A stretch of 38,817 bases of DNA from Spirochaetales bacterium (GTDB lineage Bacteria; Spirochaetota; Spirochaetia; JABEVK01). A program made the position numbers and the translations under genes. Shown here piece by piece: positions 11,474 to 38,817 of the stretch. Every line of letters begins with the position of its first letter. Position 1 is the first letter of the stretch. Below the pieces are notes generated by a model that had not been told where the DNA came from, did no database searches, and was given only the letters and a program-made list of their open reading frames with translations. Where the stretch lies: positions 1 through 38,817 of the forward strand of contig JBAXAI010000035.1 in assembly GCA_037142615.1 (NCBI GenBank), read 5' to 3'.

Positions 11474-12267
11474 GGTAAGAGTCCGTTCTTTTCGAGATAA
11501 CGGAACACGATTTCGATGCCTTGAGTGTCGCATTTCAGAAGCGTCTTGGTCTTCGCAGGCCAAGTTTTCGTGAACGTCCGTTTGACCCTGGTCCGCGAAC
11601 CTGTCAGGCCTACAGTCCCGCGGTCCAGACCGAGTTCGCCATTCGAAAGGACGCGCAACTGCGACGCCACGTCTTTTTCGAGATCCGCGTAGGCGACATA
11701 GGGGAGCTTGTAGCCACTGTCTTTGCTCAGGCTCAAGATCGCGGGAAGGGCGATTCGATAGCGCAGGATTTCGCGGTCCTGATCCACCTCAATTTCCGGC
11801 TCACCCTTCCAAAAGGAAGCGGGGTCAATTGCAACGATGTTGGACATTTGCGCAAGACCGCAGGCTTCGGCCACCTGGGACGGCACGTGAGAAGTATCTC
11901 CGTCGAGGCTATGCGTCCCGGTAAGGATGACGTCATAGCGCACCGACTGAAGATACCGGGCCAGAATCCCGGCCGTTGCCAATGTGTCGCTTCCGGCAAA
12001 ACTGGTGTCGGACAGCAACGTCGCCGTGTCCAGGTTACGCCGCAGGAGATCCTCAAGCTGCCCCTTCACGGTGCCGGGGGCCATGGTCACCACTTCAATG
12101 ACGGTTTCCGGATGACCCCGTTTGATCAAAAGGGCAAAGGCCAAGGCGCACGCATCGTCTGGGTTCAGGATTTGGGTCGAGTTTTCGCGCACCAAAGCCT
12201 GGTTGGCGTGGTCGTACTTGAACTCCTCGACATCCGGAACAAACTTGATCAGACAGACAATACGCAT
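11470..12267 (-). CDS. Electron transfer flavoprotein beta subunit
   Basis: MRIVCLIKFVPD, LNPDD, GSDTLAT, DGDT. Confidence 0.9.
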   Translation of the reverse strand: MRIVCLIKFVPDVEEFKYDHANQALVRENSTQILNPDDACALAFALLIKRGHPETVIEVVTMAPGTVKGQLEDLLRRNLDTATLLSDTSFAGSDTLATAGILARYLQSVRYDVILTGTHSLDGDTSHVPSQVAEACGLAQMSNIVAIDPASFWKGEPEIEVDQDREILRYRIALPAILSLSKDSGYKLPYVAYADLEKDVASQLRVLSNGELGLDRGTVGLTGSRTRVKRTFTKTWPAKTKTLLKCDTQGIEIVFRYLEKNGLLP

Positions 12268-24850: not shown

Positions 24851-24900
24851 AGTGAATCCTGACCAAGAAGTAAATCATCCCGACGCCGACGCTGGGGGAT

Positions 24901-24933
24901 CGGGTAACGCGTCAGGACGTTTGTCCTCGGATA
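24901..24933 (+). repeat. Array repeat, leftmost degenerate copy
   Basis: CGCGTCAGGACGTTTGTCCTCG matches 20/22 nt of the copy at 28411-28432; marks the left edge of the accessory region. Confidence 0.65.
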
Positions 24934-25400: not shown

Positions 25401-25641
25401 GTCTGTTCCACCTCTTCCCGTCGTGCTACCAGAAGAGAACCGAGTACCTGGCCAAGGGTCGTCCCCGGGTACATTTTGCCCCGGTTGGTCGAAAACCACG
25501 GCTTGCGCCGAGATCACAGTTCCTATCATTTTTTTCATCGTACGAACTTAGGCTCTGGTTTGCCCAGAGGCAAATCTCCCTTTGCCGGAATCCGGTTTAT
25601 AATCACACGGAAGAGTGGAGACTTACTTCCGGAGGAAAGCG

Positions 25642-27528
25642 ATGCAGACGCAAAGAAACTACCTGAGACTGGCGTTGTTCCTGGGTGCCCTGATGCTCCT
25701 GAGCGGGACGGCAGGCGCCCAGGCTCGCGACTGGACGGTCCTGGTCTACCTGATGGCCGACAACAACCTTGAAACCGCGGCCATGACCGATATTGCCGAA
25801 ATGACCCAGGCTGATACCGGCACCAAGGCCTCGATTGTGATGCAGGTCACGGCCAGCGGCGACAACAATGATGAGCCCAAGGTGGTCAACCTCAACCGGA
25901 TCACGACGACCAAACGGCTCGAAGCCCGCAAGGGAAGCCTCAAGGAACTTGCCGACCTTGGAAAAATCAATTCCGCAGACCCGAAGAAACTGGCCGAGTT
26001 CATTTCGTGGGGAATCAAGACCTACCCGGCGCAGCATTATGCGCTGGTCTTGTGGGACCACGGCGGAGCCTGGCCCGGCTACGGAGAAGACGACGCCCAC
26101 GATGGTGCAGGCTTCGACCTGGCCGGCCTGACCAGCGCGATCACGGATGGCCTCAAGGGCGGTGCGGTCAAGCAACTGGATCTTTTGGGCTTCGATGCCT
26201 GCCTGATGGCCACCTATGAGGTCGCGCGCGCCGTCCGTCCGCTCGCCAAGTACCTGCTGGCCAGCGAAGAATTGGAGCCTGGACACGGCTGGGATTACTC
26301 CGTACTGACGGCTTTGGCAAAGAACCCCAATACCGAGGCACTGGGCAAGACCATCATCAAGGGGTTTGCCGACTCGTCGACCGCCGAGGGCGACCGTGAG
26401 GAGGTCACGCTTTCGCTGCTCAACCTGCAGAAGATGGACGCCCTCGATGCAGCCGTCAGCGCCTTCGCTACCTACGGCCGCACCAAGATCAGCCAGATAG
26501 CACCGCAACTCGGCCGCATCCAGAACAAGACCCAGGGCTTCGGAAAGTCCGCCAAACCGGAAGAAGACACCAACATGATCGACCTCGGGCAGTTCGTCAG
26601 CCTCTACGCCGAAACCGACACGGGTGCCGGCGCGATCAAGAAGCAGTTTGACGCCGCTCTGGCAGCGCTCGTGGTCGATAAGATCAGCGGAAACCTGACG
26701 AAAGGTTCTACCGGCCTGTCGATCTACTTTCCCAACCAGAAGCGCTACTACAGTGCCCCCTACGACGCCATCGACTCCGGGCCGTGGAAAGCCCTCTTGG
26801 CCGACTACTACAAGGGCGGCTCCAGCCTCTCGCCTGCCAAGAGCACCGGAACCTACAATCTCGCCTTCACCAACGCCGACAACACCGGCGACCTGTCGGT
26901 TGACGCCGACGGCATGGTCACCCTCACGGGCACCCTCCCCAAGGACGTTGTGACCAAAGTGGTCGAGGGCCTGTTCTCGTTTGGCATGATCGATGGTGAG
27001 GACCTGGTCTTCCTCGGCGACACCGAAGTCTTCATCGACGACGAGACCGGCGAAGTGAGCGGAACCTGGGACCTGCAGATCCTCAAGATGAAGCAAGGGA
27101 AGAACGAGGCCTACTGCTACAGCAGCGAAACCGGAAAGGAAGACGGCGGCTTCGAGTACACGATTCCCCTGCGCTACTACGAGAAGGGCAAGATCAGCGG
27201 CGACGGCGAAGACATCAGTTTGGTCCTGAATACCGATGCCGAGTACAACGTCACCGGCCAGGAGTACTTCAGCACCGTCCACGACAAGTGGGGGGCTTTT
27301 ACCCCGCGCAAGGGATCCGTCGTTGTTCCCACCTGGGAACGCGCCACCGGCGACGGTGAAAGCGTGACCGAGGCCACCACCGACGTCGGTTTTGACCCGA
27401 CAAAAGGCCTCACCTACGACTACGAAGCCATCGACACCGAAACCACCGACATCTACCTCGAACTGGAGGTCTACGACGTGGGCGACAATTCCGATTACGT
27501 CAGCTATGAGGGATCGGCGGCTAAATAA
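25642..27528 (+). CDS. Secreted clostripain-family (peptidase C11) cysteine peptidase
   Basis: Signal peptide, WTVLVYLMADNNLE, WDHGGAW (His), FDACLM (Cys), GLSIYFP; acidic C-terminal region; GGAGG RBS. Confidence 0.88.
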   Translation: MQTQRNYLRLALFLGALMLLSGTAGAQARDWTVLVYLMADNNLETAAMTDIAEMTQADTGTKASIVMQVTASGDNNDEPKVVNLNRITTTKRLEARKGSLKELADLGKINSADPKKLAEFISWGIKTYPAQHYALVLWDHGGAWPGYGEDDAHDGAGFDLAGLTSAITDGLKGGAVKQLDLLGFDACLMATYEVARAVRPLAKYLLASEELEPGHGWDYSVLTALAKNPNTEALGKTIIKGFADSSTAEGDREEVTLSLLNLQKMDALDAAVSAFATYGRTKISQIAPQLGRIQNKTQGFGKSAKPEEDTNMIDLGQFVSLYAETDTGAGAIKKQFDAALAALVVDKISGNLTKGSTGLSIYFPNQKRYYSAPYDAIDSGPWKALLADYYKGGSSLSPAKSTGTYNLAFTNADNTGDLSVDADGMVTLTGTLPKDVVTKVVEGLFSFGMIDGEDLVFLGDTEVFIDDETGEVSGTWDLQILKMKQGKNEAYCYSSETGKEDGGFEYTIPLRYYEKGKISGDGEDISLVLNTDAEYNVTGQEYFSTVHDKWGAFTPRKGSVVVPTWERATGDGESVTEATTDVGFDPTKGLTYDYEAIDTETTDIYLELEVYDVGDNSDYVSYEGSAAK

Positions 27529-27540
27529 GGATGTTTCCAA

Positions 27541-27730
27541 GGATATGCGGTGGTCGATCGGCTTTGGAAAGAAGGCGACACAGTCAACCTCGACCTGCCC
27601 ATGGAAGTGGGTGTCCCCGGTAGCCAGCCGCGGGTGCGGGCTACCTTCGGCAAGGTGGCGGTTGCTCACGGTCCGCTGGTGTACTGGGCGGAGCAAGTAG
27701 ACAACGGGGCCCAGTTTAATGGTCTGGCTC
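27541..27730 (+). pseudogene. C-terminal fragment of a GH127-like glycoside hydrolase
   Basis: GYAVVDRLWKEGDTVNLDLPM...GKVAVAHGPLVYWAEQVDN; no start or catalytic domain. Confidence 0.65.
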
Positions 27731-27786
27731 TCGGGTCGGCTTCCTTGGCCCGGAGGGAAAAGAACAACGTGGTAGTCGACCTGTGT

Positions 27787-28015
27787 GTGCTGGTGGTGTC
27801 GCCTGCCGAGTTCAACGAAGCAACCAAGGTGCCCGTGATTTGTCCCAACACAAGTGTTGGAACTTTCGCCAAGCGCCTTGGATTTGCTGTTCCCCTTCAT
27901 GGAATCACGACAACGGGCGTGGTTCGTTGTGATCAGCCACGCGAGAAAAGTCGATACCCTGCCAATGCCCATTATGGAAGAGGTACTGGCAAGGCTCGCA
28001 GCCATCTTTGAGTGA
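27787..28015 (+). pseudogene. PemK/MazF toxin remnant
   Basis: VLVVSPAEFNEATKVPVICP...GFAVPL...TGVVRCDQPR, then frameshift to KVDTLPMPIMEEVLARLAAIFE*. Confidence 0.75.
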
Positions 28016-28071
28016 ACCATAATCCACTGGCATGCCCTATCGTTGAGTAAGGGACCTGAAAACCAACTGCA

Positions 28072-28104
28072 CCACCCAACAAACCCGAACTCTGCGCCCA
28101 CGGC
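28072..28104 (+). repeat. Array repeat, 5' part only
   Basis: CCACCCAACAAACCCGAACTCTGCGCCCACGGC resembles 34760-34793 (PNKPKLGADG codons). Confidence 0.65.
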
Positions 28105-28115
28105 GTCTTCGAAAC

Positions 28116-28366
28116 GGCGACACTGACAATCCGGGGCTTCGATGAGACTCTGGCGAAGACCCTTCGGGGCGAAAGCCACAAGCGGAAAGACACCAACGCC
28201 TACTCCGACTTCAAGCGCGGGGCACAAAACCTCAAGCACATCGTTGCTGAAGCACAAGAGATCCTGGTGCCGATCCCTGTGCTGGCGGTGCCCAGGAAAC
28301 TAGAAACCTCGCGGAGCTGGAGCAATTCTTGGCTACCCCGCGAGTCCACGTGCCACCGATGGGCGA
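28116..28366 (+). pseudogene. Deleted duplicate of the antitoxin-vapC pair at 33669-34312
   Basis: Three near-identical blocks of 33671-34137 joined by internal deletions. Confidence 0.85.
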
Positions 28367-28388
28367 CCATCCCGCGCACTCCTAGTGA

Positions 28389-28458
28389 CCCCAAACTCGC
28401 TGACGGCAAGCGCGTCAAGACGTTCGTCCTCGACACCAAGGTGTCCGGTCAATCAGTT
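28389..28458 (+). repeat. Array repeat with palindromic core
   Basis: Encodes PKL-ADGKRVKTFVLDTKVS; core GACACCAAGGTGTC at 28432-28445. Confidence 0.9.
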
Positions 28459-28472
28459 CCTCTGGACGAAGT

Positions 28473-28886
28473 TCATCGATCCAGCCAATTCTCGACTGCC
28501 AATCCCGGCACCCGGCCGAACTCGCTCGAGTTGTCGGTAACGACAGTCAGTCCGAGGCTACGAGCGTGGGCGGCGATGAGCAGATCATTCGGGCCGATCG
28601 GCGTGCCGTTGTTTTCGAGTCTCCAGCGGATGTCGGCGTAGTGTAGGTCGACACCGGGTTCAAAGGGAAGGATTTCCAGAGCGGTCAGCATGAGTTCAAG
28701 GCGCTCGCGAAGCGCCATCGAAACACCTTTTGCCAGCCCAAAACGAATCTCGGCGGCGACAATGAGACTAGTGCAAACGCAACCATCTCCAACACGCCTC
28801 AGGTGCTGCCCAACTAGCCCTTCGGGATCCTTTGCCAGCGAACTCAAGATGTTGGTGTCCAAAAGGTAGAGCAGCCCAACCGTCAT
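28473..28886 (-). CDS. vapC: VapC PIN-domain toxin
   Basis: YLLDTNILS, AEIRFG, PIGPNDLLIAAHA, VTDNSSEF.RVPGL. Confidence 0.92.
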   Translation of the reverse strand: MTVGLLYLLDTNILSSLAKDPEGLVGQHLRRVGDGCVCTSLIVAAEIRFGLAKGVSMALRERLELMLTALEILPFEPGVDLHYADIRWRLENNGTPIGPNDLLIAAHARSLGLTVVTDNSSEFGRVPGLAVENWLDR

Positions 28887-29125
28887 AGCCGGATGTCATC
28901 CACAGGCGGCAAACCCTTGTCCACGTCGGGAAAGGAATCGCTCAGCGGTGGCAGGCTTTCGAGCAGAGCCAGAAGGCCGCGCGGAGCTATGACCGGCTCG
29001 ACAATGAGGCGGTGTCCCTCTCGATGGATCAGCACTTCCTTGCCCGGAAGTTCCATTTCCCGGGGAATCCGCACCGCTTGATTGCGGCCGTTGCGAAATA
29101 GGCTGGCATGACGGATGATCGGCAT
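28883..29125 (-). CDS. vapB: VapB antitoxin, AbrB fold
   Basis: ASLFRNGRNQAVRIPRE; overlaps the vapC start. Confidence 0.9.
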   Translation of the reverse strand: MPIIRHASLFRNGRNQAVRIPREMELPGKEVLIHREGHRLIVEPVIAPRGLLALLESLPPLSDSFPDVDKGLPPVDDIRL

Positions 29126-29174
29126 AGGTCAAGAATAGGCCCGTCTTTGCTGGCCGTCAAGTTCGGGTTGATGT

Positions 29175-29204
29175 GCCGACGACAAGCGCGTGAAGACGTT
29201 CGTC
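29175..29204 (+). repeat. Array repeat, truncated before the core
   Basis: GCCGACGACAAGCGCGTGAAGACGTTCGTC (ADDKRVKTFV). Confidence 0.8.
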
Positions 29205-29244
29205 GGAGTTCCTCCACCAGGGTTGACCCGCAGTACGGCCCCAA

Positions 29245-29268
29245 CTCGGCGCCGGTGGTCTTGAAGGT
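29245..29268 (+). repeat. Array repeat, short 5' fragment
   Basis: ACGGCCCCAACTCGGCGCCGGTGG; 12 nt exact match AACTCGGCGCCG to the copies at 34752 and 38653. Confidence 0.5.
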
Positions 29269-29295
29269 TTTTGCCAATTTCGTTACCATTTTGCC

Positions 29296-29562
29296 ATGCA
29301 GGTTACCATAGACAAATTGGGTCGAATCCTCGTTCCGAAGTCCCTCCGGGAGAAGTATCACTTGACCGCAGGGACGTTGCTGGACTTGGAGGCGGACTCC
29401 AAGGGCGTTCAGTTCTCGCTGCGACTCCCCAAGAGCACCCTTGTGGAGAAAGAGGGAATCCTTGTCCTTCAAGGAGGCCCGGTGATCGACCTCGACGTGA
29501 CGGCCCTGATCAACCAGGAACGCGAAAGCCGGAACGTCGCCAGCCTGGGGAGCAGTTCGTGA
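29296..29562 (+). CDS. AbrB/MazE family antitoxin
   Basis: VTIDKLGRILVPKSLRE; GTGA overlap with a PIN gene. Confidence 0.85.
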   Translation: MQVTIDKLGRILVPKSLREKYHLTAGTLLDLEADSKGVQFSLRLPKSTLVEKEGILVLQGGPVIDLDVTALINQERESRNVASLGSSS

Positions 29563-29990
29563 AGGTTCTGTTTGACACATCGGTTCTCGTGCCCGCCCTC
29601 GTTGAACAGCTATCGAACCATGCGGTTTGTTTTGAGACGTTGAGAACCTACACTTCGGGCGGCAACATCGGAGTCTGCTCAACCCACTGCCTTGCGGAAT
29701 GCTATTCCACCCTGACCGCTTTGCCCTTGCCCCGCAGGGTCACCCCCCAGGAAGCGTTTGCCCTCATCGAAAGAAGCGTGAGGGGAAGGCTCGAAGTCAT
29801 CGAACTGGATACAGCCGACTACCGTGCCGCTCTTGCCAAGGTGGTCGAAGGCGGGCTGACCAGCGGCATCATCTACGACGCCCTGCACGCAAGGGTTGCC
29901 GAGAAGGCTGGTTGCCAGCGCATCTACACGTACAACCTCAATCACTTCCGCCCGCTGTGTCCTGCCAACGTCCTGGTCTCTGCACCCTGA
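29559..29990 (+). CDS. PIN-domain toxin
   Basis: (M)KVLFDTSVL, LAECYSTLT, IYDALH, IYTYNLNHF. Confidence 0.88.
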   Translation: MKVLFDTSVLVPALVEQLSNHAVCFETLRTYTSGGNIGVCSTHCLAECYSTLTALPLPRRVTPQEAFALIERSVRGRLEVIELDTADYRAALAKVVEGGLTSGIIYDALHARVAEKAGCQRIYTYNLNHFRPLCPANVLVSAP

Positions 29991-29992
29991 TT

Positions 29993-30055
29993 GGCGGCGA
30001 CGGCAAGCGCGTCAAAACTTTCGTCCTCGATACCGAGGTGTCTGTAGAATTGACA
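29993..30055 (+). repeat. Array repeat with palindromic core
   Basis: Encodes GGDGKRVKTFVLDTEVS; core GATACCGAGGTGTC at 30029-30042. Confidence 0.9.
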
Positions 30056-30090
30056 CCCAACGAAGCCGATTCTATCCTTACCGTAAGGAT
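30050..30090 (+). promoter_or_regulatory. sigma70 promoter and operator palindrome of the abrB-mazF pair
   Basis: TTGACA-17 nt-TATCCT; perfect inverted repeat ATCCTTAC-C-GTAAGGAT (30074-30090) over the -10/+1 region. Confidence 0.75.
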
Positions 30091-30098
30091 GTAAGAAC

Positions 30099-30317
30099 AT
30101 GTCGCCTGTCGTTGCCATCGTCTCCAGCAAAGGCCAGATCACCCTTCCCCAGACCGTTCGCCAAACTCTTGGGCTCCACCAAGGGGATCCGGTCCTCTTC
30201 GAGGAAAAAGATGGGGTCGTCGTTCTCCGGAAGCGCCCGAAGGTTGACGCAACCTGGGCGGCGGGGCTCGCAGCGACGTTGAGCGAATGGGAAGACAACC
30301 TCGATGACGACCTTTGA
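30099..30317 (+). CDS. AbrB/MazE family antitoxin
   Basis: VSSKGQITLPQTVRQTLGL; acidic tail. Confidence 0.88.
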   Translation: MSPVVAIVSSKGQITLPQTVRQTLGLHQGDPVLFEEKDGVVVLRKRPKVDATWAAGLAATLSEWEDNLDDDL

Positions 30318-30657
30318 GTCCGGGGACCTTGTCGAGGTTCCTTTTCCCTTCATCGACTCACAAAACACCAAGTTGCGCCCGGCGCTCGTGCTTTCCACTC
30401 CCGACTTTCAACGTCAGTCCGGAGCCTGCATTCTTGCGATGATCACCAGCGCCGAGCGCAACCGCTGGGGGAATGATTTTGTCCTGGAATCGTGGGCAGA
30501 AGCAGGTCTGCAAAAGCCTTCGTTGGTCCGTTGGAAGGTCTTCACGCTCGACGACTCCTTGATTGTCCGGCGCCGTGGCCGTTTGAAGGACAACGATCTT
30601 GCCAGGATTCGGGATGCTTTGGCCCAGGTGTTTTCGGGCTGGTCGCTTCCTGGATAG
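30304..30657 (+). CDS. PemK/MazF family toxin
   Basis: GDLVEVPFPF, KLRPALVLS, AMITS, AGLQKPS. Confidence 0.88.
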   Translation: MTTFESGDLVEVPFPFIDSQNTKLRPALVLSTPDFQRQSGACILAMITSAERNRWGNDFVLESWAEAGLQKPSLVRWKVFTLDDSLIVRRRGRLKDNDLARIRDALAQVFSGWSLPG

Positions 30658-30663
30658 GTTGGA

Positions 30664-31035
30664 GTCGAGCCGAGGTTTCATGCGTTGGGGAAGACTGAAA
30701 AAGGTCGCCTCCTCCTGTTGGTCTACACCGTTCGGAGCCAAAAGGTCCGGGTGATCTCGGCACGGAACCTGAGCAAATACCCAATTCCTGAGTTTGCCAA
30801 CGAAGCCGAGGAAGCTTTGTTCTGGCAGACCCATGACTCAACGGACTATGTTGAATGGTCCAAGGCCATGGCGAAGCCTGTGACGTTCGCGAACCTGCAA
30901 CCCAGTCTGAAAAGCATATCGCTGCGGCTACCCGAGCCCATGCTCGCGCGGCTCAAATCGCTCGCCAACGAACGCGATGTGCCTTACCAATCGCTGATCA
31001 AGATGATTCTGGCCGACCACCTCGCTCACTCCTGA
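30664..31035 (+). pseudogene. 5'-truncated copy of the BrnT-BrnA fusion at 38128-38640
   Basis: Colinear with 38275-38640 and has the same ISARNLSKYPIPEF junction; antitoxin part intact. Confidence 0.8.
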
Positions 31036-31037
31036 AG

Positions 31038-31058
31038 ACCAAAACTCGGCGACGCCGC
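31038..31058 (+). repeat. Array repeat, short 5' fragment
   Basis: ACCAAAACTCGGCGACGCCGC; follows the fusion gene just as the 38653 copy follows its paralogue. Confidence 0.55.
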
Positions 31059-31329
31059 TATGCGGCTTGTATCGCCTGCGCCGCGTGGATTCCCCGGTTG
31101 ACGACTCGACGGATTCCGCGCATTTTGTTCGTCTTCTGCCTTGGGGCCCTGTCGCATGCCGCTCTTGCCTTCTTCGCAGGTACCGTCTTCGCTCTGGTGC
31201 CCGTGATCGGCATCGTGGCGGCGATCGCGGGCGAGGCCTTCGACCTTTCCCGCCAGCTCAGTCGCTTGCGGACCCACTCTCCCACCGAGGTTCCCCTCGT
31301 CTTCCCCGATTTCTCGGCATTCTGACAGC

Positions 31330-31863
31330 ATGAAAACTCTTTTGTGGTCTGTCTTGGTTGCCCTGGCGCTGTTCTTCCCCGTGGCGGCTCAGCCCGTGTA
31401 CTGGGGCGTCCTTCCCAGTGTGCTGGTGGAGCCCTACGACGATGTCGAGGCTCTTGAAGTCAACCTCATTCCGCTCATCCTCGGTTTTGAACTCTCGCCC
31501 GGGCTACGTTTGGAGGTTCGTCCCTTGGTGGATCTGCAACTGCTCGAAGGTCGGTCGCCGGCCTTGAGCCATCTCGGTGGAACCTTCGCGTTGACCAAGA
31601 CATTCTTTGGTGAGAGCCCAGGGGTGTCGTGGCACCTCGGTCGGTTTTTTTCGGCAAACGTCAATGCCATCGACGGTGGCGTCGTCGTGATCTCGGGGGT
31701 CGAGCCCGGAGTCACGTGGACTGCGGATGATCAGTTCTCTCTCACGCTTTCACCTCAGCCGGGCGTCGATTGGTTTCTGCGGCCCGGTGCAGGTCAGGCG
31801 CCTTTGCTTCCCCACTTGGGACTCGTGGTCCACTTCGGCTGGACAACAGGAGAAACCAACTAG
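31330..31863 (+). CDS. Hypothetical exported protein, possibly beta-barrel-like
   Basis: Signal-peptide-like N-terminus, alternating hydrophobic strands, terminal HFGW. Confidence 0.6.
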   Translation: MKTLLWSVLVALALFFPVAAQPVYWGVLPSVLVEPYDDVEALEVNLIPLILGFELSPGLRLEVRPLVDLQLLEGRSPALSHLGGTFALTKTFFGESPGVSWHLGRFFSANVNAIDGGVVVISGVEPGVTWTADDQFSLTLSPQPGVDWFLRPGAGQAPLLPHLGLVVHFGWTTGETN

Positions 31864-31879
31864 TGTGGTGACGGGAGCT

Positions 31880-31901
31880 CCGGGGAACGAGTGAAGACGT
31901 T
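31880..31901 (+). repeat. Array repeat, weak degenerate copy
   Basis: CGGGGAACGAGTGAAGACGTTT (GERVKTF), 17/22 nt to a consensus of the repeat variants; sits at a gene/remnant junction. Confidence 0.4.
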
Positions 31902-31902
31902 T

Positions 31903-32050
31903 TTGAGGGTTCGAATAGATGCACAAGGTCGCCTTGAGAAAGACTCGGACCTGCTCATCGATCAGCTACGCGCCATCGACAATTCGCGACTGACTTCGGG
32001 GGGTGCCGAGGCGCTGGGACAGTTCGATCTGAAGTTCAAGCAGGTTACCG
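31903..32050 (+). pseudogene. PemK/MazF C-terminal remnant
   Basis: LRVRIDAQGRLEKDSDLLIDQLRAIDNSRL. Confidence 0.65.
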
Positions 32051-32078
32051 GCAAGCGACCCCGGCATTTTCGTCCTTC

Positions 32079-32138
32079 GACTTTTGTGTAATCCAGTCAC
32101 AAAAGTCCTTTGACTTTTGTGTGATGTGCGTCTATTCT
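32079..32138 (+). promoter_or_regulatory. Promoter and repeated operator-like motif upstream of the ATPase
   Basis: TTGACT-17 nt-TATTCT, 6 nt before ATG 32145; GACTTTTGTG occurs at 32079 and 32112 and inverted at 32098. Confidence 0.6.
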
Positions 32139-32144
32139 GGGTCA

Positions 32145-33509
32145 ATGCAACGTCACTCACTCGAGCAACTGCTGGAATGGAAACTCCGCCCCGACCGAAA
32201 GCCGCTCATTCTTCAAGGAGCTCGCCAGGTGGGGAAGACTTGGATACTCAAGGAACTTGGGCGGTTGCACTACACCAACGTTGCCTACATCAACTTCGAA
32301 TCCAACGAACGCATGGAACGGCTTTTCACTGGGAATCTGGACCCCTCGCGCTTGCTGGCGGGGCTCCGCATCGAAGCCCGTTGTTCCATTGTCCCTGGAG
32401 CCACCCTGCTGATTTTCGATGAGATTCAGGCTTGTCCACCCGCGCTCACATCGCTGAAGTATTTTGCCGAAAACGCTCCCGAGTACCATGTGGCTGCGGC
32501 CGGGTCCCTGTTGGGGGTTGCCATGCACCGAGGTGTTTCTTTTCCGGTCGGCAAAGTGGAGTTTGTCCCGTTGTTCCCCTTGTCGTTTATGGAGTTCTTG
32601 GAGGCACTGGGCCAAGCCGACTTGGCCGTCGCCGTTTCCAGTAGTCAATGGGACTTGATGACGGCGTTACGCGAGCAGTTGACGGAGCACCTTCGAACCT
32701 ACCTCGCCTTGGGAGGAATGCCCGAAGTCGTGGCCTGCTACCTCGCCAGCCGGGACTGGGCTCAAGTGCGCCGCCTACAGCGGGCCCTGTTGCAGGCCTA
32801 CGAGCAAGATTTTTCCAAGTACGCTGAACCTTCCTTGGTCCCACGGCTACGGGCACTCTGGAACTCGATCCCGGCGCAACTGGCCCGGGAACAGAAAAAG
32901 TTTGTCTATGGCCTGATCAAGGCTGGTGCACGTGCCCGTGAGTTTGAGTTGGCCATCCAGTGGCTATGCGATGCGGGGCTCACCCATAAACTGATGCGTG
33001 CCTCCAAACCTGGAATGCCGCTGAAGGCCTACCATGACCCTTCCGCGTTCAAGCTGTTCTTTGTCGACTGCGGACTGCTCGCGGCGCATGCCGGGCTCGA
33101 ACTGGAGTCACTGCTGAAAGGCAATGCGTTGTTCGAAGAGTTCAAAGGTGCCTTGGCCGAACAATACGTGAGTCAGGAACTCCGCCTTCGGCAGACCTGG
33201 GAGGTGGCGTACTGGTCAAGCGACACATCGCAGGCCGAGGTCGACTTTTTGCTCCAAGCCTCGGGCCAGATCTTCCCTGTGGAAGTCAAGGCCGCCGAAA
33301 ACTTGCAGGCCAAAAGCCTCAAAGTGTTTCACGAAAAGTTCCAGCCGCCGGGTTGCTTTCGCTTCTCGCTCTCGAACTACCGACAAGAAACCTGGCTCAC
33401 CAACGTGCCACTGTACGCTTTGGCTAGCCTAAGTAGAGAACTCACCCCCGCCTCAGCTCCCTTGGCGCCTTCCCCGAATGGCCTCTGTGAATTGCCCCGG
33501 GTTCCCTGA
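32145..33509 (+). CDS. AAA_14 ATPase with DUF4143 C-terminus
   Basis: GARQVGKT, LIFDEIQ, AAGSLLG, GGMPEVV, KLFFVDCGLL, EVDFLL..PVEVK (PD-(D/E)xK-like). Confidence 0.88.
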   Translation: MQRHSLEQLLEWKLRPDRKPLILQGARQVGKTWILKELGRLHYTNVAYINFESNERMERLFTGNLDPSRLLAGLRIEARCSIVPGATLLIFDEIQACPPALTSLKYFAENAPEYHVAAAGSLLGVAMHRGVSFPVGKVEFVPLFPLSFMEFLEALGQADLAVAVSSSQWDLMTALREQLTEHLRTYLALGGMPEVVACYLASRDWAQVRRLQRALLQAYEQDFSKYAEPSLVPRLRALWNSIPAQLAREQKKFVYGLIKAGARAREFELAIQWLCDAGLTHKLMRASKPGMPLKAYHDPSAFKLFFVDCGLLAAHAGLELESLLKGNALFEEFKGALAEQYVSQELRLRQTWEVAYWSSDTSQAEVDFLLQASGQIFPVEVKAAENLQAKSLKVFHEKFQPPGCFRFSLSNYRQETWLTNVPLYALASLSRELTPASAPLAPSPNGLCELPRVP

Positions 33510-33529
33510 GATCAAAAAAAGATAGGAGA

Positions 33530-33580
33530 AGGATTAAAACACTCTGTTTGGACACCAAGGTGTCTGTATCATTGATTGAC
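33530..33580 (+). repeat. Array repeat with palindromic core, divergent left arm
   Basis: Encodes RIKTLCLDTKVS; core GACACCAAGGTGTC at 33551-33564, then TGTATCATTGATTGAC. Confidence 0.8.
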
Positions 33581-33668
33581 CTACTACTCGCCTTCCGACC
33601 AGCGGTAACCCGGTTGAATTTGCTGGCATCCTCAGCTAGCATTATGATGCAGAACATGGAGGCAACTC

Positions 33669-33920
33669 ATGGCGACACTGACAATCCGGGGCTTCGATGA
33701 GACTCTGGCGAAGACCCTTAGGGGTGAAAGCCACAAGCGGAATATCAGCATGAACCGGCTCGTGCTCGACATTTTAGGCGAGGCCCTCAAGGTGGGGAGC
33801 AGTAAGCGGCACTTTGACGATCTTGACCACTTGGCCGGCACGTGGTCCGAGGCCGAGTCCCGGGAGTTCGATGACAAAGTCGTAGACCTGGGAAAGGTCG
33901 ATCCGGCGGACTGGAAATGA
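33669..33920 (+). CDS. Ribbon-helix-helix (FitA-like) antitoxin
   Basis: MATLTIRGFD...ISMNRLVLDIL...LAGTWS; ATGA overlap with vapC. Confidence 0.82.
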   Translation: MATLTIRGFDETLAKTLRGESHKRNISMNRLVLDILGEALKVGSSKRHFDDLDHLAGTWSEAESREFDDKVVDLGKVDPADWK

Positions 33921-34312
33921 TTCGGATCCTGCTGGACACCAACGCCTACTCCGACTTCAAGCGCGGGGCACAAAACCTCAAGCACATCGTTGCTGAAGCC
34001 CAAGAGATCTTGGTTCCGATCCCTGTGCTGGCGGAGCTGAGGGTAGGCTTCCTTGGCGGTGCCCAGGAAACGAGAAACCTCGCGGAGCTGGAGCAATTCT
34101 TGGCTACGCCGCGAGTCCACGTGCCACCGATGGGCGAACAGACCGCACTGTTCTATGCCAGAATCTACTCGGATCTCAAGCGAGCCGGGACTCCCATTCC
34201 GATGAACGACGTCTGGATCGCCGCTTCCTCCATGGAAGCCGGTGCGGTTCTGATAACCAGCGACGCACATTTTCCGCATATTGCCGGCTTGCTGGTGAAA
34301 AGCGGCGCTTAA
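33917..34312 (+). CDS. vapC: VapC PIN-domain toxin
   Basis: ILLDTNAYS, LAELRVGF, PIPMNDVWIAA, ITSDAHF. Confidence 0.9.
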   Translation: MIRILLDTNAYSDFKRGAQNLKHIVAEAQEILVPIPVLAELRVGFLGGAQETRNLAELEQFLATPRVHVPPMGEQTALFYARIYSDLKRAGTPIPMNDVWIAASSMEAGAVLITSDAHFPHIAGLLVKSGA

Positions 34313-34388
34313 AAAGCCCCGTCCGGAACACCCACACTGGTTGCCAACGAATCGACCAAGGAACGAATCCAGTGTTTTTGAAGGAACC

Positions 34389-34682
34389 ATGATCACGATG
34401 CAGACGCCGGTGTCGGCGGAAGTACAGCAAGACCTTGATTGCCTCGTCACTGCCCTCGGAACCCGCCGGGCGTCGAGCGATATTGATCTGCTTGTCCTGA
34501 CGAACTCGGGTCTGACCGATCCGTCGGTACTCAACAAGGCCCTCCGACTAGACACCTTTGGCAAACTCAAACTTCCCCTCGATCTCATCGTCGAAGACCT
34601 GCAGACTTTTGAGGAGCGCCGACTGCTCCCCACGCTCGAACGGAAGATCGCTCGTCAAGGGAGAGTTGTTTATGCGACTTGA
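34389..34682 (+). pseudogene. Minimal nucleotidyltransferase (MNT antitoxin-like), catalytic GS motif missing
   Basis: SDIDLLVL, PLDLIV, IARQGRVVY present; the LFGSxARG segment is absent. Confidence 0.65.
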
Positions 34683-34738
34683 GTCCTTGGCAAGTTCGGC
34701 GGTTGAGCTCGTTGGCTCACGACTTCCCCCGATTTCAT

Positions 34739-34846
34739 AGGAGTGACTCCCATGCCAACCACACCCAACAAACCCAAACTCGGCGCCGACGGCAAGCGCG
34801 TCAAAACTTTCGTGCTCGATACAATTGTATCCCCTCGATTAGTTAC
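34739..34846 (+). repeat. Array repeat, full-length copy with RBS and ATG
   Basis: AGGAG, ATG 34752, MPTTPNKPKLGADGKRVKTFVLDTIVS; perfect palindrome GATACAATTGTATC at 34818-34831. Confidence 0.92.
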
Positions 34847-34872
34847 TCTGCGAGAGATTAGCGCGATTGAAG

Positions 34873-35775
34873 TCACCGGTTTCGATAGTCTGAGGGGGTA
34901 ACTCCTGTCTTGACCTTGAAGAGTTTACTGAAGTGCTGCGGATACTCAAAACCCAAAGAGTATGCCACCTCACCTACGGTCAGATTGGTGCCCAAAAGCC
35001 TGTTCTTCGCCTGATCAATAACATAGTCATGGATGTGTTCTTTCGCGCTCTTGCCTGTTTCAAGCCTCAACAGGTCACTCAAATAGGGACCGGACATATT
35101 CATGGCATCGCCACATTGACTGATTGTAGGAATTCCTGCGGTCAGTTGCTCGTCGGAAGTAAAGTAGGCTTCCAGATATTCCTCAAATCTGGCAACGAAA
35201 TCCTTGTTAAGGTTGCTTCTCGTGAAGAATTGACGATCGTAATAGCGACGGCAGTACTTCAGAATGGACTCCAAGTTCACAATGATCAATTCCTGCGAGT
35301 GCGTATCAATGTTCTGCCGGAGTTCCATATCGATTTTCTCAACCAAATCATTCAACATCGCTTTTTCGTTGTCAGACACATGGAGTGCTTCGTTGGCGAC
35401 GTAATCGAAGAAGGCGAACTGGCGAATCTTCCTGGCGAGTTCAGACTTCCTGAGCAGGTCAGGATGAAAGAACATCGACCAGCCCGCATCCGACTGATCT
35501 TTCACAGGATTTTCAAAACTCGCTACTTGGCCGGGCCCCATGAAGACCAGCGTTCCATCCTCAAAGTCATAGGAACTCCGCCCATACTGGATGACTCCTT
35601 CGAAGTTTTCCTTCAGGGAGACCACATACAAGTCGCTCGTCAGCCGAAACTTCCCAAAATCAAAATCCGACTTTGGCCATTTCCGAACGATGGAGATCAG
35701 AGGGTGACTCGGTTTCGGGAGGCCAAACGTCTTGTGGAGCGCCGAGATACTCCCTATCGGAAAGATGTCTTTCAT
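34873..35775 (-). CDS. AraC family transcriptional regulator
   Basis: YLSDLLRLETG, VAYSLGFEYPQHFSKLFK...TPSDYR. Confidence 0.92.
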   Translation of the reverse strand: MKDIFPIGSISALHKTFGLPKPSHPLISIVRKWPKSDFDFGKFRLTSDLYVVSLKENFEGVIQYGRSSYDFEDGTLVFMGPGQVASFENPVKDQSDAGWSMFFHPDLLRKSELARKIRQFAFFDYVANEALHVSDNEKAMLNDLVEKIDMELRQNIDTHSQELIIVNLESILKYCRRYYDRQFFTRSNLNKDFVARFEEYLEAYFTSDEQLTAGIPTISQCGDAMNMSGPYLSDLLRLETGKSAKEHIHDYVIDQAKNRLLGTNLTVGEVAYSLGFEYPQHFSKLFKVKTGVTPSDYRNR

Positions 35776-35816
35776 CGCACGTTACCTCTCTTGTCTTCTC
35801 TTTCTTTTGGGCGACA

Positions 35817-36716
35817 CTAGTACTTGACCCCAGTCATTTCTTCCGACAATACCCACAGGCGTTTTGCAGCGTCCTCATCATAAGAACGGGCGCTGGAGCG
35901 CACGACTACGGGGGCGCCTCTGAGTTCCATCAGTCCAGAAGGGCCATAGTAGTCTCCACTCGTCGCTTGGGGGTCGGTCGCCGCACGGAGTGTGGGCAAT
36001 GCTCCCGCTTCGGCGGCTTGCGAAAAGAAGGGGTTTAGGATCTGGAACATCATCGAATGCCGTTGCAACTCTGTTCGTGCTCAGCCCGGATGCGCGGCGG
36101 TCACCACGGGAGCATTGGTCTCCTTTTTGAGTTTTCGCGACAACTCATAGGCAAAATATAGATTGGCCAGCTTGCTGTCACCATAGGCATTGCCCGTGTT
36201 GTACTCGCGTTCTTTCCAGTTGATGTCGGAAAAATCGATAATTCCTTGGCTGTGGGCAATGCTGGAGGTTGCCACCACACGCGAGGCTCTTGTCTTCATC
36301 AATAGTGGCATCAAGAGACCGGTCAGCGCAAAATGTCCCAGATGATTGGTTCCCATTTGAATCTCAAAACCGTCCTTCGTTCTCGCGAAAGGACTGGCCA
36401 TTATGCCCGCATTGTTGATCAAGACGTCGATGCGAACGCGGCTCGTCAAGATTCCCTGAGCAAACGTTCGAACCGACTCCAAACTCGAGAGATCTAGATA
36501 CCTGATGTCGAATTGAGCCTGGGGGAAAGCCCGCCGGATCTCCTGAACAACGCCTTCCGCTTTTTGGATATCTCTGACGGCCAAGACAAGGGTTCCGTTT
36601 TTGCTGGCCAGGACTTTTGCGGCCTGTTTGCCGAGACCACTGGTTGCCCCAGTGATGACAATCACTTTGCCGTCTTGTGGTGGAACGTCGTTAGCTCCCT
36701 ATTTTTCTCTTGCCAT
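35817..36716 (-). pseudogene. SDR oxidoreductase (retinol dehydrogenase-like) with two in-frame stops
   Basis: One frame from ATG 36716: MAREK*GANDVPPQDGK..TGATSGLG..NNAG..YGDSK..AAHPG*ARTELQRH; TAG at 36699-36701 and TGA at 36081-36083. Confidence 0.85.
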
Positions 36717-36781
36717 GTACTGCGACTCCCCAAGAATTGATAAGGACATCATAGCTTAGACCAAAAAAATCAAGATACAGT

Positions 36782-36812
36782 TTTCGCAGAAGTTTGGATA
36801 TATTTCGCAGAA
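36782..36812. promoter_or_regulatory. Probable AraC-type tandem binding site
   Basis: TTTCGCAGAA twice with a 21 bp period, upstream of the SDR-araC unit. Confidence 0.5.
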
Positions 36813-36861
36813 TGCTAAGTGGAGCAGTTGCAGTTCTACCCCAATTGTGTTACGAGCAAGC

Positions 36862-37383
36862 ATGAACAATACAGACCGAAGAAACGAACTACTCAATCTG
36901 TTTCAGCAATGGGCCAATCACTTCGGCTATCTCGACGGGAAAATTCAGATTGCCTCCGACGAGGAACTGCAAGCCTTTGCAACCACCGACTGCACGTTGA
37001 CGTCACATCCTCCGCTTTGGGGAGCAAGACCGGGCCTGGAAAAGGCGGTGCCAGCAACGACGGTCCGCCGGAGCCTCCAGGGCCTGCTAAGGTCGTTCAA
37101 GGTGACACGACTCGAGATGCACGTCGCCGTGAACGAAACCAAGCTGTGCCTGTATTTCGTCGTCAAGGGACGGCTCAAGCTTTTTCCGTTCTTTGATGTC
37201 ATGAACGTCCCACTGGCCTTTGTGCTCGGCGCGGTCGAGACGCCCCAAGGTCTGCGAATCGACGAAGTTCATGAATGGCCCGCTGCTTCCCCCACAGACG
37301 CGCTGAAGGTCCTGGTGGCGCAGCATGCTTGGCCAGCAACGGCACGATTCGAGCAGCATGTCGCTTTTGGGGCTGTGTCGTAG
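36862..37383 (+). CDS. Hypothetical protein, possibly NTF2/SnoaL-like
   Basis: 173-codon ORF with plausible composition; no recognised motif. Confidence 0.5.
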   Translation: MNNTDRRNELLNLFQQWANHFGYLDGKIQIASDEELQAFATTDCTLTSHPPLWGARPGLEKAVPATTVRRSLQGLLRSFKVTRLEMHVAVNETKLCLYFVVKGRLKLFPFFDVMNVPLAFVLGAVETPQGLRIDEVHEWPAASPTDALKVLVAQHAWPATARFEQHVAFGAVS

Positions 37384-37403
37384 GGACTAACGCTATCGAA
37401 GGC

Positions 37404-37452
37404 CACGTCAACATGTTCGTGGTCGGCACAACGGTGGGCGGCAAATTGATTG
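37404..37452 (+). repeat. Array repeat, degenerate copy
   Basis: 33/49 ungapped match by hand to 38017-38065, including ATTGATTG at identical spacing. Confidence 0.55.
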
Positions 37453-37524
37453 TTCTGCATTGAACCGGGGACTCGATTGCCCTCTTGCTGCTGTTGCGTC
37501 ATACTTGTCAAGCAGGGGTACATT

Positions 37525-37897
37525 ATGCTGGCTGTCCGACTGGATCCGACGATGGGTGAGAAGCTCACCCGCCTGGCCCAAGAGACAGGCCGAAGTAAAA
37601 GTTACTACGTCAAACAGGCCATTTCTGACTTTCTCGACGAAAGGGAAGACTACCGGCTGGCCTTGGCCTGGAACGCTGAAGCTTCGGAAGTGGCTGGCAG
37701 CGATCTTGGACTATCTGGAGGACGAGATCGCTCCGCTTCCCGATCTGCGGTCCAAAGGGAAAGCCCTCGTGGGAGACAAAAAGGGCCTCTGGCGCTTCCG
37801 GGTGGCCGATTTCCGGATCATCTGCGAAGTTGAGGACACCCAGCTTGTTATCTTGGCCGTTGCGATCGGTCATCGCAAGAATGTCTATGAATGCTGA
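37525..37897 (+). pseudogene. RelB/RelE-type pair fused and frameshifted by deletions
   Basis: MLAVRLD...ETGRSKSYYVKQAI...EDYRLA runs directly into LAW; RelE body GKALVG..GLWRFRVADFRII..IGHRKNVY lies in another frame. Confidence 0.8.
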
Positions 37898-37928
37898 ATC
37901 TCACGTATACTCTTGAGCTGGAGCCCGG

Positions 37929-38003
37929 CCACGCCACTTCGTGGCTTAGGCCCCCACGCAGCGTTGCGGCTTACGCCCCCACGCCACTTCGTGGCTTAGG
38001 CCC
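37929..38003. repeat. Three tandem 25 bp hairpin units
   Basis: CCACGCCACTTCGTGGCTTAGGCCC at 37929 and 37979, with variant CCACGCAGCGTTGCGGCTTACGCCC between them. Confidence 0.85.
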
Positions 38004-38004
38004 C

Positions 38005-38067
38005 GCCGACGGCAAGCGCGTCAAAACTTTCGTGCTCGACACCAATGTGTCTGTAGGATTGATTGAC
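38005..38067 (+). repeat. Array repeat with palindromic core
   Basis: Encodes ADGKRVKTFVLDTNVS; core GACACCAATGTGTC at 38038-38051, then TGTAGGATTGATTGAC. Confidence 0.92.
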
Positions 38068-38092
38068 TTTTTGGTCGCGTGACACGCGCCGA

Positions 38093-38121
38093 TTGACGTC
38101 TGTATATTTCTGCAACATACT
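38093..38121 (+). promoter_or_regulatory. sigma70-type promoter, probably leaderless
   Basis: TTGACG-17 nt-CATACT, 6 nt before ATG 38128. Confidence 0.6.
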
Positions 38122-38127
38122 TTCATC

Positions 38128-38640
38128 ATGATCAATGCCGAGTTGGCTGGCTTCGATTGGGACGAGCACAACTCCGACAAGAACCGGAACAAGCATGGCG
38201 TCGAACCGACGGAATGCGAGGAAGTCTTCTTTCACCAACCACTCGTGGTGAGCCCAGACGTCAAGCATTCGCAGGTCGAGCCGAGGTTTCATGCGTTTGG
38301 ACCGACCGACAAAGGACGCCTGCTTATGTTGGTTTACACCGTTCGGAGCCAGAAGGTCCGGGTGATCTCAGCACGGAACCTGAGCAAATACCCAATTCCT
38401 GAGTTTGCCACGGAAGCCGAGGAGGCTCTGTTCTGGCAAGCCCACGACACTGTGGACTACGTTGATTGGTCCATGGCGAAGCCTGTGACGTTCGCGAACC
38501 TGCAACCCAGTCTTAAGAGCATATCGCTACGGCTCCCCGAACCCATGCTCGCGCGGCTCAAATCGCTCGCCAACGAGCGCGATGTGCCGTACCAGTCTCT
38601 GATCAAGATGATTCTTGCCGACCATCTCGCCCACTCCTGA
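38128..38640 (+). CDS. In-frame fusion of BrnT (DUF497) toxin and BrnA/CopG-like antitoxin
   Basis: GFDWDEHNSDKNRNKHGV...RVISAR joined to IPEFATEAEEALFW..HD..DY...ISLRLP...DVPYQSLIK. Confidence 0.82.
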   Translation: MINAELAGFDWDEHNSDKNRNKHGVEPTECEEVFFHQPLVVSPDVKHSQVEPRFHAFGPTDKGRLLMLVYTVRSQKVRVISARNLSKYPIPEFATEAEEALFWQAHDTVDYVDWSMAKPVTFANLQPSLKSISLRLPEPMLARLKSLANERDVPYQSLIKMILADHLAHS

Positions 38641-38751
38641 AGGAGACTACCCATGCCAACCACAACACACGGCCGACCCAAACTCGGCGCCGACGGCAAG
38701 CGCGTCAAAACTTTCGTTTTGGATACAAATGTGTCCCTTTAATTCATTGAC
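38641..38751 (+). repeat. Array repeat, most intact copy, with RBS, ATG and a 29-codon ORF
   Basis: AGGAG, ATG 38653, MPTTTHGRPKLGADGKRVKTFVLDTNVSL* (stop 38742); core GATACAAATGTGTC at 38722-38735. Confidence 0.92.
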
Positions 38752-38817
38752 GAATACGAGCCCTAGGAGCCTGTCGGAGTAGCGGACGCGAATTCCCACT
38801 AATGCTGAACGGTGATA

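Follow-up and report, generated by a model that had tools for sequence, protein, structure and literature searches.

Copies of a PIN-PhoH gene start separate small, mostly toxin-antitoxin cassettes in a Spirochaetales genome

Repeats and cassettes in the window

The window analysed here is one whole contig (C35; 38,817 bases) of a Spirochaetales bacterium, whose genome assembly (GCA_037142615.1, below G000) comprises 4.27 Mb in 76 contigs. From 28.4 kb onwards, the window carries a tandem array of short repeats with small gene units between them. The left arm of the repeat is a copy of the start of a gene for a PIN-PhoH protein of the YlaK type, of which the intact copy lies on another contig (C14), and the right arm is non-coding. 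Below, a copy of the gene start is called a surrogate 5' end.

The palindromic core GAYACNNNNGTRTC (GAYAC-N4-GTRTC) matched six times in the window, at 28432, 30029, 33551, 34818, 38038 and 38722, always on the plus strand. By chance a mean of 0.07 matches is expected, and none of 100 shuffles reached six. A preliminary description, made from the letters alone, had named the same six cores and several features around them, all of which were recovered: the central dinucleotide is AA in four of the six copies (30029 has GA and 34818 has AT), AT(T/C) stands at +7 to +9 past the core in all six, TT at +12 to +13 in five (30029 has CA), and TTGAC right of the core in three (33551, 38038 and 38722). 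GTCAA is found in the left arm of five copies, 33551 having TTAAAAC there. Moreover, a 20-nucleotide pattern of the left arm gave seven matches against 0.09 expected, including a truncated one at 29184 and a weak one at 24905, and a repeat search of the window returned families of 67 and 83 nucleotides.

The cassettes measure 0.6-3.5 kb, and the units between the cores 0.67-3.5 kb. Further left arms are truncated or decayed (24896-24925, 28063-28104, 29175-29204, 31037-31064 and 31888-31912), and the last three of these split some of the units. At each junction, the surrogate 5' end of the left cassette is joined to the conserved non-coding arm of the next cassette. The features of the array are listed with their Pfam values and their matches in a sister species (G002):

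28063..28384 (+): surrogate 5' end remnant (28063-28104), then a decayed copy of the FitA-like/PIN cassette that is intact at 33669-34309; repeats D11, D9, D6 and D7; blastn match to G002 82720-83197
28398..28466 (+): junction; left arm ..DGKRVKTFVLDT, core 28432-28445, family B right arm
28476..29125 (-): cargo; PIN toxin (28476-28886; PIN 2.5e-19) and MazE/AbrB-type antitoxin (28886-29125; MazE_antitoxin 2.5e-06); 90% identical to G002 62756-63536
29175..29204 (+): truncated left arm (..KRVKTFV), broken off ~10 nucleotides short of the usual core; 90% identical to the reference arm (D4), 0 mismatches to the 20-nucleotide pattern
29296..29987 (+): cargo; MazE/AbrB-type antitoxin (MazE_antitoxin 1e-04) and PIN toxin (PIN 1.1e-08)
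29995..30060 (+): junction; left arm, core 30029-30042 (centre GA), short family A right arm
30099..30654 (+): cargo; MazE antitoxin (1.1e-11) and PemK/MazF toxin (1.3e-15)
30664..31064 (+): truncated second BrnT/BrnA cassette (CopG_antitoxin 8.5e-31), then surrogate 5' end remnant 31037-31064; repeats D3, D5 and D10
31888..31912 (+): truncated left arm (repeat family D13)
32121..33506 (+): cargo; AAA_14/DUF4143 ATPase (7.6e-26, 2.6e-37); 98.9% identical to G002 87769-88874
33536..33585 (+): junction; diverged non-coding left arm AAAACACTCTGTTTG, core 33551-33564, family A right arm
33669..34679 (+): cargo; FitA-like antitoxin (4.3e-06), PIN toxin (1.9e-11) and a weak nucleotidyltransferase-like open reading frame (34341-34679; 9.2e-04)
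34753..34850 (+): junction; complete surrogate 5' end (ATG at 34753, MPTTPNKPKLGADGKRVKTFVLDT; translation of the near-identical contig L072), core 34818-34831 (centre AT), family B right arm
34876..36665 (-): cargo; AraC-type regulator (34876-35775) and short-chain dehydrogenase open reading frame (36084-36665), the latter covering the first 146 of 195 Pfam profile positions
37450..37894 (+): decayed RHH antitoxin/ParE toxin pair with the domains in overlapping frames (RHH_1 2.2e-05, ParE_toxin 2.5e-10); intact copy on C14
37929..38074 (+): three tandem 25-nucleotide units (37929-38004; repeat D12), then junction; left arm, core 38038-38051, family A right arm
38128..38637 (+): cargo; BrnT toxin (1e-22) and BrnA (CopG) antitoxin (8.4e-31) domains in a single 170-aa frame
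38653..38757 (+): junction; surrogate 5' end complete (MPTTTHGRPKLGADGKRVKTFVLDTNV followed by SL and a stop), core 38722-38735, right arm with TTGAC at its end; the contig ends within the array

The Pfam matches indicate seven toxin-antitoxin loci from 28.4 to 38.8 kb (PIN/MazE twice, PemK/MazE, BrnT/BrnA twice, FitA/PIN and ParE/RHH), six of them on the plus strand. The other content of this part consists of the decayed second FitA/PIN copy, the ATPase, the AraC regulator and the short-chain dehydrogenase. In G002, BrnT and BrnA are encoded by two overlapping genes of 107 and 88 aa; the single frame at 38128-38637 could be either a toxin-antitoxin fusion or a decayed pair.

The preliminary description had set the limits of the feature at 28411..38751. 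The array does lie there, but it reaches beyond them, crosses the contig edge and resumes on C14. Before the intact gene, the C14 part holds a two-component system, a secreted protein, an IS110-family transposase fragment, a ParE/RHH cassette and a CopG-type cassette. Within G000, array motifs were found on C35 and C14 only, and the core pattern outside the array at three unrelated places. The assemblies of G000 and G002 both break inside the array. A fragment of the single-copy target gene stands at every element boundary, and the intact gene lies at one end of the array; in G002, the two are contiguous. The IS110-family piece is a C-terminal fragment inside the array (L001:13200-13634, plus strand, which is G000:C14 ~87200-87634); it abuts the last 27 nucleotides of a gene for a PIN toxin, the full copy of which ends at window position 29990.

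The arms of the junctions and the place of exchange

The left-arm pattern recurs three times on C14, on the minus strand near the contig end, and the last copy runs on into an open gene of 456 codons encoding PIN_4 (2e-30) and PhoH (9e-49) domains. The left arm is equivalent to the first ~36 codons of this gene. It had been recognised as coding in the preliminary description, but it is longer than was claimed there, up to ~80 nucleotides: the copies at 34753 and 38653 include a ribosome-binding site and an ATG and read MPTT..PKLGADGKRVKTFVLDT(N)V. A break of identity with the intact gene had been predicted within the core, and the alignment revealed such a break. The copies and the gene are alike as far as ..AATGT, where identity ends; the gene continues with CTTCATCC (..FIHRPDAL), whereas the copies continue with GTGTC or GTATC and then with non-coding sequence. 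Thus, the gene does not include the right half of the palindrome.

In G000, the working gene begins with the element-type start MPTT... By comparison, the leftmost junction of the gene-contiguous array in G002 has a native-type start (..KDKKQPKVFVLDT), which resembles that of array-free relatives. Matches to the gene-start pattern were also obtained in viral_contigs. They were rejected as junctions because all 27 loci (L078-L104) encode intact PIN-PhoH proteins. These proteins start no more than a few codons from ..KTFVLDTNV.., so that the recombination site of the array is located at the very N-terminus that is typical of the family. The left arm at 38004 is preceded by the three tandem 25-nucleotide units of 37929-38004, each of which contains a small GCCAC..GTGGC hairpin. 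A related unit is present in frame in the N-terminal extension of the intact PIN-PhoH protein (..NSATPLHGLRP..; L001, G000:C14, ~11840-11880, minus strand), and the unit is absent from the surrogate starts at 34753 and 38653.

Arrays were found in two lineages (see below). For the first of them, 16 distinct junctions were compared, which derive from G000, G002 and three metagenome contigs. Eleven right arms share GTGTC-TGTAtnATTGATTGAC, four share a second form and the remaining one differs from both. Pairwise comparison within the first family (55 pairs) gave 69% identity over the first 21 nucleotides, compared to 28% at +26 to +100; the 50 pairs with unrelated cargo still have arms that are 68% identical. 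The right-arm motif, first described from six copies, is therefore retained in the larger alignment. Moreover, one metagenome contig is 96.8% identical to G002 over 3.5 kb and has a different third cassette, and the two sequences diverge immediately beyond the TTGAC of the arm that they share.

Alternatively, there may have been no site-specific recombination at all; the region would then simply be variable, and duplication with illegitimate or homologous recombination would have produced the copies of the gene start. Such a history would be in line with the arms that are truncated elsewhere (29204, 31912) and with the many decayed cassettes. However, the break falls at the same base in all 16 junctions, the non-coding arm is conserved even where the cargo is unrelated, the same architecture recurs with a different sequence in the second lineage, and the similarity of the cassettes between species far exceeds that of the target gene. 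We therefore consider this explanation very improbable. As far as sequences can establish it, the anatomy of the junctions, the identity break, the conservation of the right arm independently of the cargo and the same layout in a second lineage are firm.

The place of the exchange can be narrowed down if the core is written as GA-Y-AC-N1-N2N3-N4-GTRTC, in which N2N3 is the centre. The centre is AA in 14 of the 16 junctions of the first lineage and in all six of the second. The GA at 30029 is a later change, because the G002 junction at 82323 with the same right arm has AA. N4 tracks the right-hand cassette in seven of seven junctions from three cassette groups, being T in 3/3 BrnTA-type, G in 2/2 VapBC(-) and G in 2/2 MazEF-type arms. 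For instance, the left arm of the ATPase cassette, which is 98.9% alike between the species, is followed by G at 33551 in G000, where the FitA/PIN cassette comes next, and by T at 88845 in G002, where it is joined to a BrnTA-type cassette. Y and N1 vary among junctions with a common right partner, as seen in one of the three groups (VapBC(-)). Since N4 tracks the right partner and Y and N1 vary independently, the exchange would take place between N1 and N4, in the AA that opens the Asn codon. From this small sample we infer that the exchange is confined to the central AA, the first two bases of the Asn codon, in agreement with the crossover proposed in the preliminary description.

Assembly of the array and candidate enzymes

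With moderate confidence, we interpret the repeats as the junctions of a tandem array of integrase-less cassettes at the start of the PIN-PhoH gene, built by a large serine recombinase that acted in trans or has since been lost. According to this model, cassettes would have been inserted successively by site-specific recombination into codon 36 (Asn, DTNV motif) of the single-copy gene. A cassette consists of a conserved non-coding P' arm of ~22 nucleotides, the cargo and a P arm that copies the first ~36 target codons; complete P arms include a ribosome-binding site and an ATG. The insertion would therefore keep the gene whole and provide it with a new start. Recombination of a circular cassette P-AA-P' with the gene site B-AA-B' would rebuild the gene as P-AA-B' and leave the old start behind as B-AA-P'. 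Because P copies the left half of the gene, the rebuilt site would accept the next cassette. The array would thus grow at its gene-proximal end, and an internal junction would then resemble a complete attP of ~50 bp. Furthermore, blocks could be cut out and re-inserted, which would give rise to differing cassette orders.

The attachment (att) site of a large serine recombinase is an imperfect inverted repeat of about 40-50 bp with a central dinucleotide. An imperfect inverted repeat of about 48 bp had been claimed for the window and is indeed present: the inner GAYAC/GTRTC pair is symmetric, and the outer GTCAA at 25 to 21 bases on the left faces TTGAC at 19 to 23 bases on the right, giving a span of ~48-50 bp. 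The mirrored motifs of this ~50-bp site are GACAC/GTGTC (inner) and GTCAA/TTGAC (outer). In both lineages, the right arm repeats the outer motif of the element-borne left arms as a mirror image, two bases closer to the centre (GTCAA/TTGAC and CCGGT/ACCGG, respectively). The three native-type arms of the first lineage lack the GT of the GTCAA motif. Given the known properties of the two enzyme families, a serine recombinase is preferred to a tyrosine recombinase because the size of the site, the inner and outer dyad, the invariant non-palindromic AA and the exchange window of 2-4 bp fit it better. From the earlier proposal of attL/attP-type serine recombinase junctions, the junction anatomy, the identity break and the dyad of ~50 bp stand; the class of the enzyme is suggested indirectly by the geometry of the site and by a decayed gene for a large serine recombinase in the sister genome.

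This gene begins 70 nucleotides past the G002 junction at 84144, contains an in-frame TAG and is cut off within its second domain. The left arm of the junction is a full surrogate start. An intact protein of 520 aa (P0001) is 84% identical to the decayed recombinase and has Resolvase, Recombinase and zinc-ribbon domains. The junction keeps the geometry described above, its outer GTTTAAAC being mirrored to the GTCAAAAC of the left arm with the two-base offset. Moreover, a homologue of the cyclic-nucleotide-binding gene that neighbours the recombinase in G002 is found in a cassette that lacks a recombinase and has the common right arm (74.8% identical over 333 nucleotides). P0001 was detected neither in viral_contigs nor, apart from G002, in the 12 genomes of the order.

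Several observations weigh against a large serine recombinase or against an array that is still mobile. At the junction next to the recombinase gene, the right arm is a different one that lacks GTRTC, and resemblance to the intact gene persists for ~8 bases more; this junction may therefore use a neighbouring crossover. Three distant relatives of P0001 (26-32% identical), identified among 401 genomes of the class, are not near any PIN-PhoH fragment. Neither the window part nor the C14 part of the array encodes a recombinase, save the IS110-family transposase fragment, and in G000 neither a Recombinase-domain protein nor any trace of P0001 was found. The sole serine recombinase of G000 is a resolvase of 199 aa on contig C57, which has terminal inverted repeats of ~55 nucleotides. 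No serine recombinase was found in the two genomes of the second lineage, G025 and G401, of which G025 is 84% complete and both are fragmented. The linkage argument for the crossover comes from few junctions, and later mutation could mimic linkage. Finally, the decay of many cassettes implies that the array may no longer move. The class of the enzyme, a crossover of 2 bp and continued mobility are putative.

The small resolvase on C57 was rejected as the array enzyme, as the contig is transposon-like and carries no array motif. C57 (15,138 bases), with inverted copies of ~55 nucleotides at both ends and the resolvase at one of them, probably represents a Tn3-like transposon that was assembled as its own contig.

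The same array could have been built by a tyrosine recombinase acting in trans, such as an Xer-like or phage-type integrase encoded elsewhere, with the palindrome as the core site. We regard this as rather unlikely. The core of the second lineage is a near-perfect inverted repeat with 11-13 bp on each side of four bases, which can be read as 10-6-10 or 9-8-9, and Phage_integrase matches are at hand, ten in G000 and many on small contigs in G025. However, none of the ten matches in G000 lies on C35 or C14, no contig bearing a recombinase has an array motif, and no integrase was detected among the open reading frames scanned in the flanks of any junction locus. Tyrosine recombinases on the contig ends C2, C40 and C71 were rejected for the same lack of an array motif. 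Moreover, tyrosine recombinases need an overlap of 6-8 bp. Here, the partner sites differ on both sides of the central AA, leaving a shared overlap of 2-4 bp that is too short, and the conserved site spans ~50 bp. The tyrosine alternative is favoured by the parts of a published account that deal with islands restoring the end of their target gene, which are usually built by tyrosine integrases (PMC4383910).

An integron-type origin, in which the junctions would be attC-like sites recombined as folded single strands by an IntI integrase, is suggested by the small, mostly co-directional and toxin-antitoxin-rich cassettes with short repeats between them and by the array lacking an integrase, like CALIN clusters, which are cassette arrays without an integrase. 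We consider it extremely unlikely. None of the four array-bearing genomes reaches the cut-off of 265 bits for the integron integrase model TIGR02249, the best score being 119.6. Four junctions folded on both strands (eight folds) did no better than shuffled sequences (z of -0.65 to +0.43), with a stem of only 5 bp. The R-box motif of integrons is GTTRRRY/RYYYAAC, and no such pair was found in the junction sequence. Furthermore, the repeat is itself coding, being the start of a gene.

The cassettes might also be moved by an unannotated enzyme or by an unrecognised or RNA-guided recombinase, such as one of the IS110 family. Three of the four array-bearing genomes yielded no classical recombinase, and the transposase fragment in the C14 part of the array (Transposase_20, 5.8e-17) lies beside a junction. 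However, it is a single fragment on the opposite strand that cuts a cassette short, and the cassettes themselves carry no such gene. We judge this explanation improbable.

If a serine recombinase is indeed responsible, the locus might be a self-renewing, integron-like cassette platform. The internal junctions would be full attP sites and the gene-proximal site would always be a usable attB, so that the integrase alone would suffice to add new cassettes, and to excise and put back gene-proximal blocks, without a directionality factor. The last cassette, which is usually a toxin-antitoxin operon reading towards the PIN-PhoH gene, would supply the start codon and probably the transcription of the PIN-PhoH RNA enzyme. 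We put this extended proposal forward as a doubtful one.

Distribution, comparison with known systems and surroundings

A scan of 41 relatives with the left-arm pattern matched G000 and G002 only, and these are also the only array carriers among 12 genomes of the order. In eight relatives with a single PIN-PhoH gene (two members of the genus, four of the family and two of the class), no upstream copy of the gene start was found in the 3-19 kb examined. The cassettes shared by G000 and G002 are 85.1-98.9% identical and differ in order, and the PIN-PhoH gene is 80.8% identical. At the level of sequence, cassettes have evidently been reshuffled and exchanged horizontally between species.

Part of the window was also present in 20 runs from 11 studies of freshwater or lake metagenomes. 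A contig from run X5 joins position 34320 to 38004 and thus lacks 3.7 kb (block 34321-38003), as does G002. Runs X5 and X10 have no cover at ~34.9-37.3 kb, and the loss was counted only where the X5 contig bridges it. Two read joints (29991>37981 and 37953>34770) and loose ends at 38732 and 33580 were considered as signs of excision and rejected, as the repeated arms and the copies on C14 explain them.

A pattern scan for further arrays, which covered 401 Spirochaetia genomes, all species genomes and metagenomes, uncovered the second lineage, consisting of G025 with seven surrogate starts and G401. It has its own surrogate start (MQNGK..KTFVIDT), the core GAYAC-N4-GTATC and its own conserved right arm ending in GTAAAYACCGG; the outer CCGGT/ACCGG pair spans ~54 bp. 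Matches to the junction pattern in contigs L049, L050, L066 and L067 (Clostridia, Gammaproteobacteria and two from metagenomes) and in G380 were rejected because they are ordinary genes.

Arrays of this kind may be compared with several known systems. SCCmec, pseudo-SCC (staphylococcal cassette chromosome) and composite islands stack at rlmH (orfX) and are moved by CcrAB. Like the array described here, they comprise serine-recombinase elements and recombinase-less relatives in tandem at one gene, with repeated integration-site sequences between them and mobilisation in trans. They differ in using the 3' end of the target, in their large size, in their drug-resistance cargo and in having the Ccr genes normally in the array. 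The resemblance to integron arrays and CALIN clusters lies in the many small cassettes, which often encode toxin-antitoxin modules, in the short site between each and in the order being shuffled between strains. Unlike integrons, the present array has no IntI, no folded attC and no attI or Pc; the site is double-stranded, att-like and overlaps a coding start, and the cassettes are placed to drive the target gene rather than the reverse. Islands with dusA-specific integrases, and similar ones, enter the 5' end of a protein gene and supply a replacement 5' end; however, these are tyrosine integrases on large prophages or islands and do not form stacks of mini-cassettes. No description of integration at a PIN-PhoH gene was found in a literature search.

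The ssrA islands of Dehalococcoides are also similar. According to the parts of the study that concern them, they lie in tandem at a single-copy conserved gene, and their boundary is a direct repeat of the target end with extra conserved bases (McMurdie et al. 2011; PMC3146451). A CcrB-like large serine recombinase adjoins attL, and some islands lack an integration module and were read as cis-mobilizable; SCC elements are mentioned as well (PMC3146451). Both systems thus have units without an integrase, and the G002 array has one decayed recombinase-bearing unit. As described in the same parts, the ssrA islands differ in that they occupy the 3' end of an RNA gene, have a repeat of 20 bp, measure ~10 kb or more and keep an integrase module in half of the cases (PMC3146451). 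By contrast, the units described here are located at the 5' end of a protein gene, bring a new start codon and N-terminus each, measure 0.6-3.5 kb and have no working recombinase in cis. The tycheposons of Prochlorococcus share site-specific elements, variable islands and tandem repeat junctions, and a minority of them use a large serine recombinase; in the sections of the preprint that describe them, 937 of 937 encode their own integrase (910 of the tyrosine type) and often replication genes (bioRxiv 10.1101/2020.12.28.424599). The window cassettes differ in encoding no integrase.

That serine-recombinase elements accumulate in tandem with relatives lacking a recombinase at a single conserved gene is known from SCC, and from the ssrA islands (PMC3146451). 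New are the 5' end of a protein gene as the target, the replacement start brought by each unit, the size of the mostly toxin-antitoxin units, which is that of integron cassettes, and the occurrence in two Spirochaetia lineages. The locus may be regarded as a way to bank small accessory genes, mainly toxin-antitoxin modules, without an integron, by means of an att site over a conserved gene start. Each unit would rewrite the N-terminus of the PIN-PhoH protein and probably also affect its expression. Two lineages with the same design, together with the exchange of cassettes between species, suggest a family of mini-elements that annotation pipelines miss because no recombinase is encoded. Furthermore, the ~22 natural hybrid sites and the candidate enzyme P0001 could serve as a specificity map for a new serine recombinase.

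To the left of 28.4 kb, toxin-antitoxin debris lies between a clostripain-family peptidase gene and the array. It includes a chimeric open reading frame (27550-28008) of a C-terminal piece of glycoside hydrolase 127 and a PemK toxin fragment, located between the peptidase gene and the first clear junction. The features of this edge are:

23663-24850 (-): ROK gene, divergent, beside the decayed arm at 24896; neighbour of the array edge
24896..24925 (+): decayed, frame-shifted left arm, 70% identical to the reference arm (family D4), 3/20 mismatches to the pattern; weak
25615-27525: clostripain-family peptidase gene, left of the array and before the first clear junction

The arm at 24896..24925 is possibly the oldest junction in the window. 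In G003, which is array-free, the counterpart of the genes upstream of PIN-PhoH is the end of G000 contig C20 (C20:64804-67632 versus G003:C104) and not C35. All of C35, metabolic genes included, may thus lie between the ancestral neighbour and the PIN-PhoH gene, and the island may be larger than described here. In G002, a carbohydrate block of 17 kb (G002:C14:64700-81400; L012 and L013) is located between two junction-bearing stretches of the array and contains genes for GHL6, two GH9 enzymes, an ABC sugar transporter, an aldo-keto reductase and a histidine kinase with an AraC-type regulator. Such arrays may therefore also comprise very large cargo or a rearrangement.

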